Shown here: piece by piece, positions 4,491 through 7,680 of the stretch | How the letters are laid out: the number at the start of each line of letters is the position of its first letter | Numbering within the stretch: position 1 is the stretch's first letter | DNA from: a virus | Taxonomy: Duplodnaviria; Heunggongvirae; Uroviricota; Caudoviricetes | Virus record (IMG/VR): IMGVR_UViG_2558860170_000002 | Direction: 5' to 3' (one strand) | Length of the DNA stretch: 37,042 nucleotides | Notes under the pieces: generated by a model | Told to the model about the DNA's origin: nothing | The model's input: only the letters and a program-made list of their open reading frames with translations | The model's database searches: none | Made by a program: the position numbers and the translations under genes

Positions 4491-4802
4491 TCAGAAGGGT
4501 AGTTCCCCCTGATCACAGAACCAATCACCTTCTTCACTGCTTTGATTCATCCGGTACTCAGCAGATAGATATGCTAACCCATCAATAACACTTATTAGTG
4601 GTGTTTCACAGGTAAGTACAAAACAATCTCTCTCTATAGTACCTAACCAGTATTCCCTGTACTGATTCTGGAAGAATACCCTATCCCCATAATGAAATTC
4701 TGTTAGTGCAGATCCCCAATAACACACGGTTGCCCAGCGACCGTTATGTGAGAACTTCTGAACCCCTCGCGTAATGGATGGATCATAGCCGTCTTTGCTC
4801 AT
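4491..4802 (-). CDS. hypothetical protein (103 aa)
   Basis: Intact ORF, divergent from the EAL-like gene across a repeat-rich intergenic region. Confidence 0.4.
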   Translation of the reverse strand: MSKDGYDPSITRGVQKFSHNGRWATVCYWGSALTEFHYGDRVFFQNQYREYWLGTIERDCFVLTCETPLISVIDGLAYLSAEYRMNQSSEEGDWFCDQGELPF

Positions 4803-4904
4803 TTGTTACCCTCCTCTATGTATTACTGTATATATGTACAGTATTGCAGTCAGTTTCCCAAAAATCCAGCACCCCTTTGTTTACCACTTTGAATGATTAA
4901 TTCT

Positions 4905-4975
4905 ATTGTAATGATCAATAAAATTGATCGATTTAATTGCCAATGTTTTAAAAATGATCAATTATCAATAACTTA
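4905..4975. promoter_or_regulatory. divergent promoter/operator region with repeated GATC-containing motifs
   Basis: Three copies of (A)ATGATCAAT / ATTGATCGAT-like motifs within about 60 bp, between the divergently transcribed genes at 4491-4802 and 4995 onward. Confidence 0.3.
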
Positions 4976-4994
4976 AAGCGTAACGAGCAAAGTT

Positions 4995-5240
4995 ATGAAC
5001 ATTGATAATTGGGCAATACCGATAACAAGTTTGGGTGGTCAGTTGCTGGGGGTTGAGTTGGTCAGCCATGTAGAACGCGAGGGAATCAGGCAGATCGGCC
5101 TATGGGAAGAAGAAGTACTTCATGGGCAACTAATGCTTATTGAAAGCAAGGCGGCATGGTTCAGGGATAACGGTTTGTATTGTGTGATTACTACTGGCCG
5201 TGGTGAACCATACGAGTACTTACCATTCCTTCGGCAGATG
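4995..5240 (+). pseudogene. 5' portion of an EAL-like domain gene interrupted by IS21
   Basis: The ORF runs into the IS21 terminus at 5241. Removing the IS and one copy of the 4-bp duplication joins it in frame to 7375-7680, giving about 184 aa. Confidence 0.5.
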
Positions 5241-5299
5241 TGTCAACGCCACGATGTTTGACCGTTATTTGCCATTTTCATGCCCGCTAAATACTTTCG

Positions 5300-6100
5300 T
5301 TACTGATGCTGTCCGCTTTCCACCATTTCATCATCACTGATTGGCGTTGTGTTTTTGGTCAGCACTCCAGCTTTACGTTTCTCTTTTAACCGGTAACTCT
5401 CTCCTTTGATATTCAGCGTGGTTGAGTGATGTAGCAGCCGATCCAGGATCGCTGTTGCCAGTACGTGATCTCCGAACATTTCTCCCCAGTCTGCGAACCC
5501 TTTGTTTGACGTCAGTATGATGCTCGCTTTTTCATATCGACGGTTCAGTAGCCGGAAGAACAGACTGGCTTCCTCTCTGTTCATCGGCAGATAGCCTATT
5601 TCATCCAGGATCAACACCCGGGCATAACTCAGTTGCTGTAGCTGACGCTCCAGCCGGTTTTCCTGTTTCGCTTTCATCAGTGTCGCGATCAGTCTGTCCA
5701 GTGGCATAAACAGTACCCGATGTCCCGCATCCACCGCTTTCACGCCAAGAGCTATGGCCAGATGAGTTTTTCCGACACCAGGAGGGCCCAGCAGGATCAC
5801 GTTTTCGCTGCGCTCCACGAACGCCAGACCAGCCAGTTCCCGGACAACCTTACGGTCGATGCCCGGCTGGAAGGTAAAGTCGAACTGCTCCAGCGTTTTG
5901 ACCCACGGCAGACGAGCCTGCTTCAGCCTGGACTCCATACCGCGCTGATGCCTGCCGTTCCATTCCTGCTGTAGCGCCATGCACAGGAACTCCCGGTAGT
6001 TCAGCTCTTTTTTAGCTGCCTGTTCCAGCAGGCTTTCAACGTGATAACTCAGATGCTCCATTTTCAGGCGACTCAGCAGGACTTCCAGTTCATGCATCAC
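5300..6100 (-). CDS. istB: IS21 transposition helper ATPase IstB
   Basis: Walker [11 protein letters not shown] and Walker B LILDEIGY; 266 aa. Confidence 0.85.
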
Positions 6101-7269
6101 AACAGCTCCTCATAGGCACTCAGTGGTCGATGTTCCACCTGACTGACCTGCTGCCAGAGCGGGGCGTGATGCTCCGGCACTGTCTGCCAGCCAGACGATG
6201 CTGAACAGAGGCGATGTGAGGCCACCAGTTTCTCATTACTGTAGATCCGCAACTCGTCATCCAGCGATATTCGTATCGATACCGGCTGACCACACAGCGC
6301 TTCGGGAACGCTGTAACGATTACCACCAACCTCGATATAGCTGTCCCAGGACACATGGCGGATATCGAAGTAACTGGTATCGAAGTCTGTATCCGGTAAC
6401 GGCTGCAGATGTTCCTGCTCCAGCGCGAAGCGCTGTTCCGGCGTTTCTTTGAACTGGCGAAGCTCCCGTTTGTCAGCCACATCGGCTATCCATTGCTCCA
6501 GTTGTTGATTGACATGAGTGAAGCTGTCGAACCTGCGGTACCGGACGAAGAAGTTCTCCTTGAGGTATTTCACCATCCGCTCAACCTTACCTTTTGTTCT
6601 GGCCCTGCGTGGACGGCATGCCCGTGGCAGGAAGTTATAGTGGTCAGCCAGCAACAGGAATCCGGAGTTGAACACGACTTTCCCGTTGTTATTCTTCAGC
6701 ACCGCAGCCTTCTGGTTATCAACCAGCACCGTTTTCACACAACCACCGAAGTAGCGGAAGGCGCGAACCAGTGATTCGTAGGTATGCTCAGCATCCTGTT
6801 TTGGTGCGGCGAAGACATGGAAGCTGCGGGAGAACCCCAGCGTATTAACCGCAAAGTTAACTTTGCACCGTTGCCCGGCAACCTCCACCTCAACTTCGCC
6901 CCAGTCATGCTGGAGCTGGTATCCAGGCTGAGTTTCGAAGCGAACTGTTCTTTTTGACGGACGCATTTTACGTTTGGGCTGGATGTAGTAACGCAGCATG
7001 GAACGTCCGCCCGTATAACCCATTGCCTTAATCTCCGCGAAGATAACCTCGCTATTCCAGACATTCTCTGCCAGGCGCATGTCGATGTAATCCATAAACG
7101 GTTTCAGCTTAACCATTTTGTGGCGGGTCTTTCTGGCTGGCGGTTCAGGGTATTTGAGGTAGCGTCTGACCGTCCGTTCAGAGCAACCAATCTGAGTCGC
7201 AATATCAACGATGTACGCGCCCTGCTGGCGCATTTGCTTTATCATGTAAAAGTCCTCTCTGCTCAGCAT
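6097..7269 (-). CDS. istA: IS21 transposase IstA
   Basis: 390 aa with an N-terminal HTH and a DDE domain; the sequence matches IS21 IstA as I recall it. Confidence 0.85.
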
Positions 7270-7370
7270 GTTGATGTCCTTTCTGGTGTGAGAACCTTAA
7301 GGAAACAACATGTTGGGTGGAGCGGACAATCCAAATGGCGAATTACCGTCTTATATCACTGGCGCTGACA

Positions 7371-7680
7371 GATGACAAGGGATATGAAAGTACATAACCA
7401 GCAGTGGCTTGATGATCTCGGTGTACATGGTGGTTCTGCTATTCCTCTGGTTACAGGTGATTTCGAGGTTGCCCGATTAAATAGAAGGTACACAGAAGAG
7501 AACATTGACCGTCTGATCTTTCCAGTACTCATAAAAAGCATTCGCCAGTACTGCGAGAAGGTGATCGTACCCGTCAGAGATAAAACGTATTACCCAATTC
7601 TCAGAGAGGCCGGTGTATGGGCGGTACAGGGAGAGTTCAGGCCAATGCGTTTTGAGCAATGTGAAAAATTAATAGGATAA
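7371..7680 (+). pseudogene. 3' portion of the EAL-like domain gene interrupted by IS21
   Basis: In frame with 4995-5240 once the IS and one GATG copy are removed. The C-terminus ILREAGVWAVQGEF resembles the conserved EAL-domain C-terminal motif. Confidence 0.5.

Follow-up and report, generated by a model that had tools for sequence, protein, structure and literature searches.

Which protein is encoded by the gene that IS21 has split in this prophage, and what could the intact protein do in a lysogen? The window, i.e., the whole stretch of 37,042 nucleotides analysed here, is a degraded, IS-riddled prophage of Shigella sonnei. The pseudogene itself is ordinary; the phage-borne gene family to which it belongs has not previously been described. 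The searched literature contained no paper connecting EAL-like proteins and prophages. Domains of the c-di-GMP type are seldom reported on phages, and a review of the subject names just two cases, a GGDEF protein in phage YuA and a riboswitch in PhiCD119 (PMC10333796).

Insertion of IS21 and the intact allele

The insertion sequence occupies positions 5241–7370 (2130 bp, minus strand) and was identified by IstA and IstB profiles, by a GATG duplication and by its identity to annotated copies. It contains istB (5300–6100, minus strand) and istA (6097–7269, minus strand), whose products scored 302 and 284 bits against NCBIfam IS21 cut-offs of 200 and 160, respectively. The termini are TGTCAACGCCA and TGTCAGCGCCA, which agree in 10 of the first 11 bases. 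The target-site duplication consists of a left copy of GATG at 5237–5240 and a right copy at 7371–7374; contigs L014 and L015, in which the site is empty, have GATG only once. The features by which IS21 is recognised were all found, namely an IstA transposase with an IstB helper ATPase, terminal inverted repeats with TGTCA termini, a short (4-bp) target duplication and near-identity to a reference; over its full length there is 100% identity with the IS21 annotated on plasmid pSS_046 of S. sonnei Ss046 and on other plasmids. It shows no difference from known IS21 and is an ordinary copy.

The insertion point is after codon 82 of an EAL-like gene on the plus strand. Codons 1–82 (4995–5240, delimited by the excision join) run into a stop at 5261, which results in an 88-aa ORF. 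Codons 83–183 and the stop (7375–7680) contain DDLGVHG, RLN, the equivalent of an FlhD-binding helix (residues 121–141) and QG; the ATG within the right GATG copy begins a 102-aa ORF for this C-terminal fragment (7372–7680, plus strand). Split into fragments of 88 and 102 aa, the gene is inactivated in the window, as a previous sequence-only reading had stated. That reading had also expected an in-frame ORF of about 184 aa upon removal of IS21 and one GATG copy. Joining 4995–5240 to 7375–7680 indeed gave an in-frame ORF of 552 nt; its length is 183 codons plus stop. The empty site is natural: contig L014, with one GATG, agrees with the sequence excised in silico at all 975 bases compared, and the intact 183-aa protein is encoded by the same prophage in the complete S. 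sonnei chromosomes CP061367 and CP026802. The exact 88-aa fragment was present on 125 contigs named S. sonnei and the exact 102-aa fragment on 108. The database name of the latter is "Uncharacterised protein"; a cluster representative of 101 aa, with 100% identity across the fragment, is designated "EAL domain-containing protein, partial" (S. sonnei records).

Relationship to EAL proteins and carriage by prophages

A failure of the reconstituted protein to match EAL-domain profiles had been named as an outcome that would speak against an EAL-like protein, and with Pfam EAL (PF00563) literally this was obtained: there was no match even at E ≤ 1, and the curated gathering threshold was not reached. 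The test is too insensitive, since the cluster representative of STM1697 itself is also below the Pfam EAL threshold (23.7 versus 31.3 bits). Searches with the reconstructed protein in Pfam, NCBIfam and PHROGs yielded no or sub-threshold matches, e.g., 23.6 bits in the C-terminal half for NCBIfam PRK11596 (PdeH), which has a cut-off of 190. The family profile matched STM1697 (5hxg_A) with E = 1.2e-28 over residues 6–71 and 86–182; YdiV was not found in this sequence search even at E ≤ 10. Comparison by hhalign of A1 with A5, which comprises Pfam-EAL-positive relatives, gave a probability of 99.9% (E = 2e-31) over 184 columns, i.e., the full length. Members of A5 match PF00563 (e.g., P0046 with 60.5 bits), and 33 of the 40 superfamily members do so.

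An AF2 model of moderate quality (mean pLDDT 67.7, with low confidence at residues 30–40 and 70–112) had 49 PDB matches at E ≤ 1e-3 in Foldseek, all of them EAL or EAL-like, with TMq values of 0.45–0.65. STM1697 came first (E = 2e-12, 28% identity), followed by YdiV (E = 8e-8) and then by canonical EAL domains. In the alignment GVEL corresponds to the EAL motif, DDLGVHG to DDFGTG and VQGE to the terminal QG. The profile, hhalign and Foldseek results, together with the aligned GVEL and VQGE, bear out the proposal of an EAL-like protein with EAL-type ends, and these comparisons support its placement in the STM1697 lineage, as an EAL-like protein that stands alone and has degenerated. The likening to YdiV was appropriate as to the class of regulatory EAL-like proteins; as the nearest relative YdiV has to be replaced by STM1697, which is closer.

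The roles of the EAL motif residues (EALxR, N, ExxE, DDFGTG, KxD, EGVE and Q) are general knowledge on EAL enzymes. The phage protein has kept E21, D95, D96 and Q167. It carries H25 in place of the arginine, T66 in place of N, MTRD in place of ExxE, R116 in place of K and N118 in place of D, and P148, with a one-residue deletion, in place of the E of EGVE. Of nine canonical catalytic positions, five have thereby been lost, and the full catalytic and metal-binding set of EAL enzymes is not present. The suspected degeneration of the catalytic signatures is borne out: R, N, ExxE, K and the E of EGVE are all replaced or deleted.

The family, with a length of about 182 aa, is rare and has a fixed position in one uncultured lineage of Enterobacteriaceae prophages, which encodes a GpA-type terminase along with a large serine integrase and is without cultured relatives. 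On one side of the gene are accessory genes near the integrase, on the other the terminase genes; its position upstream of terS, terL and the portal gene is constant in the prophages found in Lelliottia, Scandinavium, Shigella and gut metagenomes, and also in six IMG/VR viral contigs. The prophage context in the window and in the related loci agrees with the earlier view of an EAL-like regulator carried by a phage, and the intact orthologues which should be sought in related prophages do exist, as full-length members with 50–89% identity. Values of dN/dS were 0.09–0.39 in all and 0.1–0.25 for the intact full-length orthologues, and the family is under purifying selection. All hosts named by the sources are Enterobacteriaceae, the clade in which FlhDC operates.

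Searches outside this lineage found little. When the reconstructed gene was compared with 5,426 complete E. coli genomes by megablast, and with 50,697 phage records by sensitive blastn, nothing was found. The single match obtained by tblastn against phages (31%) was a 2,175-bp Salmonella record labelled "UNVERIFIED_ORG", which is probably host DNA of the STM1697 type. Only two relatives were found among species-representative genomes, and a fold search in BFVD detected no viral protein with an EAL-like structure. Rfam yielded nothing over the whole window, hence no c-di-GMP riboswitch.

Neighbouring genes and the upstream region

Divergent to the EAL-like gene is a gene for a protein of 103 aa (4491–4802, minus strand), with an invariant C-terminus (DDWFCDQGELPF) and no assigned function. 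A LexA (SOS) box, TACTGTATATATGTACAGTA, is located at 4824–4843, 21 nt upstream of its ATG; it is perfect and the sole match in the window, and CTGT-N8-ACAG is kept in L001–L005 and L007–L009. The 103-aa gene is thus predicted to be LexA-controlled, from a putative SOS promoter. This box went unmentioned in the sequence-only reading. On the other side, 5 nt after the stop of the EAL-like gene, a gene for a 120-aa lipoprotein begins (MKKLLIGLLIALSTGC; 7686–8048, plus strand), which has the same position in L001, L003, L006, L014 and L018. The lipoprotein had no family match in Pfam, NCBIfam, PHROGs or PADLOC, and PADLOC gave nothing for the genes of the locus. Judging by the spacing only, the lipoprotein gene is probably co-transcribed with the EAL-like gene.

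The repeat-laden control region (4892–4969, plus strand) contains AATGATTAAT, a GATT variant of the repeat, at 4892, AATGATCAAT at 4910 and 4953, ATTGATCGAT at 4923, and TATCAAT at 4963. The three GATC-containing repeats which had been pointed out in the divergent intergenic region are real, with GATC starting at 4913 and 4956 (in AATGATCAAT) and at 4926 (in ATTGATCGAT). As a cluster they are not statistically unusual and were rejected as such: 88% of random placements of the 143 GATC sites of the window yield three GATC in 50 bp, and a second cluster of this kind is found inside IS21. Unlike the density, the positional conservation of GATC exceeds chance, as judged from the related loci: positions -70, -56 and -39 from the ATG recur where the proteins are only about 50% identical.

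A sigma-70 promoter of the EAL-like gene is predicted by consensus scan at 4937–4965 (plus strand), with TTGCCA, a 17-nt spacer and AATTAT. The TTG of the -35 hexamer is common to all aligned loci and the following three bases are variable; positions -45 to -16 are 73–97% identical, compared with 44–89% for coding DNA. Overlapping the -10 region is a candidate IHF-type site (4950–4975, plus strand), which consists of an A-tract, 8 nt and then TATCAATAACTTA. The latter fits the IHF core consensus, WATCAANNNNTTR, and an upstream A-tract is part of the architecture of lambda H'. The core is found twice in the window, a number that does not by itself exceed chance; each of 14 related loci has one copy, and no more, of the composite A5-N8-core, always at this position.

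The GATC repeats could also constitute a Dam-methylation-dependent switch, either phase-variable or replication-coupled, rather than ordinary promoter and IHF-site sequence. The recurrence of the three positions in distant relatives would be in favour of this, as would the arrangement in most relatives, where one GATC forms part of the -35 hexamer (TTGATC) and another lies directly next to the -10 element; moreover, the 30-bp core retains its high identity though dS between the subfamilies is saturated. Such a switch is nevertheless considered unlikely. Three GATC per 50 bp are expected by chance in the window, and single sites are missing from several loci, the one at -56 from the window as well as from L008 and L013, the one at -39 from L009. 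The conserved unit exceeds GATC (TGATCAAT plus TATCAAT) and fits an IHF-type site as well, and an OxyR- or Lrp-type partner site was not recognised. Some further candidates were rejected: an immunity operator, since no further copy of TGATCAAT lies near a regulatory region of the window; an FNR box (TTGAT-N4-ATCAA), by eye, the spacing here being N5; and P1-pac-like hexamers, TGATC(A/G), since terS is 5 kb away and the terminase is of the GpA type.

Proposed function and comparison with known systems

The residues by which STM1697 contacts FlhD have been described (PMC5622320). Among these 11 positions, five are identical in the phage protein (L97, V108, L134, K136, Y141), three are conservative (Y121, R128, V133), one is changed (H176 to S137) and two are deleted (V115, L116); this conservation is not diagnostic for FlhD binding, since several positions, e.g., the equivalents of F160, L136 and Y180, are also kept in catalytically intact EAL relatives. 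F160, K167, L172, L173, K175 and Y180 of STM1697 correspond to Y121, R128, V133, L134, K136 and Y141, respectively. The most invariant stretch of the family, RLNRRYTEENIxRLIFPVLIKSIRQYC, coincides with the FlhD-binding helix of STM1697. A sub-branch of 169 aa (P0015) is without the DDLG segment, including the L136 equivalent.

From these sequence comparisons and by analogy it appears somewhat probable that the intact protein would be an anti-FlhD4C2 factor which acts as STM1697 does, and which would be useless in non-motile Shigella. Helix 121–141 (with Y121, R128, V133, L134, K136 and Y141) would bind the FlhD subunit of FlhD4C2, and class II flagellar genes would be shut off in the lysogen; such lysogenic conversion should reduce flagellin and could perhaps exclude flagellum-dependent phages. 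Shigella has lost flhDC through IS elements (PMC7373316). Loss of the phage gene would presumably be neutral there, because flhDC was already destroyed and the gene would have been without a target.

Other explanations have to be weighed against an anti-FlhD4C2 factor. One would be that the reconstructed ORF is open by chance only, or belonged to a gene that was dead beforehand, so that IS21 destroyed nothing. This would be compatible with the lack of a Pfam domain and with database names which are all "hypothetical"; the intact full-length orthologues with dN/dS in the purifying range and the significant homology to a solved protein, STM1697, already refute it, synteny is kept across the related loci, and its probability is practically nil. 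An active c-di-GMP phosphodiesterase or a c-di-GMP receptor, delivered by the phage to alter host signalling, could be suggested by the full-length homology to EAL domains, by the retained E21, D95/D96 and Q167/G168 and by the weak match to the PdeH model. This is very improbable in view of the replaced or deleted R, N, ExxE and E of EGVE, which bind metal or substrate, of the replaced catalytic K and of the missing Pfam EAL match; in addition, STM1697 and YdiV, the closest characterised relatives, neither bind nor hydrolyse c-di-GMP (PMC5622320; PMC10333796). Because of the motif losses and the behaviour of these two proteins, we infer that the phage protein is catalytically dead and would neither bind nor hydrolyse c-di-GMP.

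A more serious competitor, although still rather doubtful, is a non-catalytic EAL-like adaptor with a partner other than FlhD, which could be another host transcription factor or some protein of the phage or the host that has nothing to do with flagella. For YdiV and STM1697, binding to further transcription factors has been reported; YdiV is cited as manipulating the DNA binding of Fur, and STM1344 and STM1697 as interacting with "various transcription factors" (PMC10333796). The deleted and changed contacts, the partly generic nature of the conserved ones and the operon-like row with the lipoprotein and small exported proteins of unassigned role point in the same direction. In contrast, the best conserved segment is precisely the one equivalent to the FlhD-binding helix, the polar contacts K167 and K175 are retained as R128 and K136, and the named hosts all belong to the Enterobacteriaceae.

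A broader version of the anti-FlhD4C2 reading is held more tentatively, at slightly less than even chances: the descendants of the STM1697 group in this phage lineage, of about 182 aa, may be phage-delivered antagonists of FlhD4C2, with lysogenic conversion via the conserved GATC/IHF-type promoter. If so, host flagella would be silenced and the lysogen could be shielded from flagellotropic phages or from immune detection. E. coli possesses YdiV and has no STM1697 homologue (PMC10100727); hosts of the E. coli clade would thereby gain a regulator of the STM1697 type which is otherwise missing. In the window, the gene and its prophage are both dead and the host is non-motile, so that no physiological consequence arises here.

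Among known proteins, STM1697 of Salmonella Typhimurium (PDB 5HXG) is the best match in sequence (about 28–35% identity) and fold. Both are stand-alone EAL-like domains without a sensor domain, both have lost the EGVE glutamate and have histidine for the EALxR arginine, and the FlhD-binding helix is largely conserved. The phage protein is shorter by about 50 residues (183 versus 235 aa); a segment of about 29 residues, with V115/L116 among them, is missing between the N strand and the DDLG strand, and about 10 are missing near the N-terminus. N, ExxE and K are kept by STM1697 and lost in the phage protein, whereas the latter has kept both Asp of DDFGTG, where STM1697 has GD. STM1697 is chromosomal; the family described here is phage-borne, with a function predicted from homology. 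If FlhD were bound, the phage protein would represent an FlhD-binding EAL scaffold of minimal size, smaller than STM1697 by about 50 residues, which would be helpful for dissecting the interface.

YdiV/STM1344 (RflP; E. coli and Salmonella; PDB 3TLQ, 4ES4), second in the fold search, is of the same fold class and is likewise a degenerate EAL protein, which binds FlhD and not c-di-GMP (PMC5622320). Its identity to the phage protein is only 16–18%, and its key residues F155, F168, F181 and A184 are not those which STM1697 uses; YdiV strips FlhD4C2 off DNA, whereas STM1697 blocks the recruitment of RNA polymerase. With PdeH (YhjH) and other stand-alone catalytic EAL enzymes there is whole-domain homology, as reflected by the hhalign result with PF00563-positive relatives; the phage protein differs from them by being under every curated threshold, about 50–70 residues shorter and devoid of five of the nine catalytic positions. 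TldR, the RNA-guided flagellin repressor of Enterobacter prophages (PMC13418256), is a functional analogy only: it, too, is cargo of temperate phages of Enterobacteriaceae, and it acts on host flagellar expression, as the EAL-like protein would. Molecule and target are unrelated. TldR derives from TnpB and binds DNA at fliC, whereas the phage EAL-like protein is a putative antagonist of the master regulator; if it did bind FlhD, temperate phages would possess, beside TldR, a second and protein-based way to reprogramme the flagella of their hosts.

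The IS21 insertion and the intact allele

A complete IS21 element (5241-7370, 2130 bp; termini TGTCAACGCCA and TGTCAGCGCCA), flanked by direct repeats of GATG at 5237-5240 and 7371-7374, splits the EAL-like gene. Its istA (6097-7269) and istB (5300-6100), both on the minus strand, encode proteins surpassing the NCBIfam IS21 cut-offs, and the element is 100% identical over its entire length to IS21 elements annotated on plasmids of S. sonnei. Removal of IS21 and one GATG joined 4995-5240 to 7375-7680 in a 552-nt ORF of 183 codons plus stop, and this in-silico excision matched a public contig (L014) in 975 of 975 bases. 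The interruption, the GATG duplication and the in-frame join, all proposed in a sequence-only reading, were thus confirmed by the identity of the element, the repeats and a natural intact allele. Complete S. sonnei chromosomes encode the intact 183-aa protein in the same prophage (569 blocks in the index), and the exact split fragments of 88 aa and 102 aa were found on 125 and 108 contigs, respectively, named S. sonnei; S. sonnei is thus polymorphic for the insertion. The ORF of the 102-aa C-terminal fragment (7371-7680 region) starts at the ATG within the right copy of the GATG repeat. S. sonnei records name a 101-aa form of the fragment "EAL domain-containing protein, partial"; the name of the intact 183-aa protein is just "hypothetical".

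Three small genes for envelope proteins follow in a row (7686-8871), encoding a 120-aa lipoprotein, an 89-aa protein with a possible signal peptide (a hydrophobic N-terminus, judged by eye) and a membrane protein of 146 aa; no family match was found for any of the three. The position of the lipoprotein gene is constant across the prophage lineage. IS21 is probably polar on these genes, for which superinfection exclusion or surface modification would be possible roles.

Relationship to EAL domains and the putative FlhD interface

The reconstructed protein gave no match to Pfam EAL (PF00563) at E ≤ 1, and 23.6 bits with the NCBIfam PdeH model, below its cut-off of 190. A database search yielded 15 homologues (13 full-length, 169-191 aa) from Shigella, E. 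coli, Lelliottia, Enterobacter kobei and metagenomes, none of them with a Pfam domain. The family profile matched one solved protein, the EAL-like regulator STM1697 (5HXG; E = 1.2e-28). With an AF2 model (pLDDT 67.7; low confidence in residues 30-40 and 70-112) the fold search ranked STM1697 first (E = 2e-12) and YdiV next (8e-8), before canonical EAL domains, in keeping with the suggested resemblance to regulators such as YdiV. When 1.84 billion representatives were searched exhaustively with an HMM, only 56 relatives were recovered, 6 of which are short forms (E < 1e-30); most of the others are stand-alone proteins 200-246 aa long, with some fragments. PF00563 matched 33 of 40 aligned superfamily members, and profile-profile comparison of PF00563-positive members with the short family gave 99.9% probability over the full length (E = 2e-31). 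Thus, the proposed EAL relationship failed against the Pfam profile, but was supported by the family profile, fold search and profile-profile comparison. Since the cluster representative of STM1697 itself also falls below the Pfam threshold (23.7 against 31.3 bits), "EAL-like" is the right term.

When aligned within the superfamily against canonical EAL motifs, the protein keeps the E of EAL (E21, in GVELV), the DD of DDFGTG (D95 and D96, in DDLGVHG) and QG (Q167, G168). The R of EALxR is replaced by H25, the Asn by T66 and ExxE by MTRD; KxD reads R116-L-N118, and the E of EGVE is P148, with a one-residue deletion. The catalytic signatures are degenerate, as had been supposed, and, given how EAL chemistry is commonly understood, a protein of this sequence is very unlikely to be a phosphodiesterase. 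Relative to STM1697, about 29 residues are missing between the Asn and DD strands and another 10 or so nearer the N-terminus. In a 169-aa sub-branch (P0015 type; L006, L009-L013) the whole WLDDLGVHGGSA segment, the DDFGTG remnant, is deleted and a 7-residue insert near the N-terminus gained; this sub-branch retains the counterpart of the FlhD helix, as well as the promoter element.

The STM1697-FlhD crystal structure defines 11 contact residues in STM1697, and the F160A/L173A exchange abolished both binding and repression of motility (PMC5622320). Five of the 11 contacts are identical in the window protein (L97, V108, L134, K136, Y141), three are conservative (Y121, R128, V133), one is altered (H176 to S137), and two (V115, L116) lie inside the deleted segment. 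Nowhere is the family less variable than in the contact-bearing stretch RLNRRYTEENIxRLIFPVLIKSIRQYC. Since catalytic EAL relatives also conserve several of these positions, the residue pattern is compatible with FlhD binding but does not diagnose it.

Control region and prophage setting

A divergent spacer of 192 bp separates the EAL-like gene from the 103-aa gene (4491-4802, minus strand). A perfect LexA box (4824-4843), occurring once in the window and kept in relatives, lies 21 nt upstream of the start ATG of the latter gene, which would accordingly be LexA-controlled. No recognisable fold was found for the 103-aa protein; its C-terminus contains an invariant DDWFCDQGELPF, and the QxxLPF at the extreme end is reminiscent of beta-clamp-binding motifs. 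In the 191-aa branch (L022, 1034-1509) the LexA box is still there (CTGTGTATATAAACAG, about 160 nt upstream), and the 103-aa gene, read by eye, is seemingly a remnant of about 33 codons.

A sigma-70 promoter is predicted for the EAL-like gene at 4937-4965 (TTGCCA-17-AATTAT), the TTG of its -35 element being retained in all relatives. The three GATC-containing repeats, (A/T)TGATC(A/G)AT, previously noted in the spacer are present, with GATC at 4913, 4926 and 4956. A 26-bp element at 4950-4975 (A5-N8-TATCAA-N4-TTA) occurs once in each of 14 related loci, always at this spot; we take it to be a candidate IHF site, as it agrees with the consensus for the core and has the layout of lambda H'. Across loci, positions -45 to -16 are 73-97% identical and coding DNA 44-89%, with dS between subfamilies saturated, and GATC is found again at -70/-56/-39 where the encoded proteins share only about 50% identity; selection is thus acting on the element. 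It may be read by IHF, by a dedicated repressor or through Dam methylation.

The window is a prophage, with terS (10138-10683), a GpA-type terL, a lambda-type portal, a protease-capsid fusion and tail genes. Two inverted copies of IS2 are present (about 11012-12340 and about 27230-28563), the first splitting terL (N-terminal part 10598-11041, rest 12372-13832), and the prophage is therefore defective. An IS3-family element (30881-32085, minus strand; OrfA 31747-32085, OrfB 30881-31720) interrupts a tail/tail-fibre gene (28524-30875, resuming from 32155). The integrase-proximal accessory region carries two HNH endonuclease genes (533-1087 and 2134-2877), the latter also weakly matching Type IV methyl-directed restriction enzyme models (E = 4.7e-7). 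An ORF with an N-terminal HNH nuclease domain (36248-37042, continuing past the window end) matched CBASS-type "SAVED_HNH" effector models and the candidate system PDC-M68A in PADLOC (E down to 4e-23), and may be a prophage-borne defence gene.

Related loci share a gene order: a large serine recombinase (adjoining prkA/yeaG or msyB) with small and HNH genes; a 222-267-aa and a 103-105-aa gene (both minus), the EAL-like gene and the lipoprotein gene (both plus); then terS, terL, portal and capsid. The prophage lineage (window; L001, L003, L017-L020) has a large serine recombinase and is integrated beside prkA/yeaG, or beside msyB in Lelliottia. Intact orthologues occupy the same position in related prophages, including those of Shigella and Lelliottia; the 191-aa form (47% identical) does so too, but its upstream neighbour differs. 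The family is present on six IMG/VR viral contigs and, in the set of species-representative genomes, in Scandinavium and Buttiauxella alone; the gene for a 224-aa intermediate lies on a chromosome, outside any phage. The portal reached at most 31.5% identity in a 50,697-record phage collection, and hence there is no close cultured relative. Values of dN/dS among family members are 0.09-0.39, so the gene is functional where intact. A 2,175-bp GenBank record, "Salmonella phage S.Kent 1-2-1" (L016, OR851295.1; UNVERIFIED_ORG), encodes a relative 31% identical to the window protein; the record probably stems from the STM1697 region of the host and not from a phage.

Possible role and comparison with known systems

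As the best explanation, which we favour by a narrow measure as a whole, the phage would carry an STM1697-type anti-FlhD4C2 factor, disrupted by IS21 in a host already without its target. The structural side of this explanation is near-certain; its FlhD step could about equally well hold or fail. Shigella lost flhDC via IS elements (PMC7373316), and E. coli possesses YdiV only, without STM1697 (PMC10100727).

The same scaffold might instead serve a partner other than FlhD, a less probable reading that the non-diagnostic contact pattern would also accommodate. An active or c-di-GMP-binding EAL domain, for which E21 and D95/D96 are kept, is very improbable with the R, Asn, ExxE, KxD and EGVE glutamate altered, and a spurious ORF has already been refuted by dN/dS, intact homologues and conserved gene order. 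Independent of these readings is the idea of a Dam-dependent promoter switch, which is rather unlikely: the GATC positions recur in distant loci, but three GATC in 50 bp are not improbable in the window.

Degenerate EAL-like regulators as a kind and ordinary IS21 insertion are known already; the novelty lies in the short architecture, in the inability of curated EAL profiles to detect the family and in its restriction to one prophage lineage. In line with this, the literature searched contained no paper combining EAL-like, prophage and YdiV, and a BFVD structure search gave no similar viral structure. The significance is moderate for the gene family and low for the window's own pseudogene. According to a review, phages are known to carry few c-di-GMP elements (PMC10333796), and for prophage control of host flagella TldR is a recent precedent.
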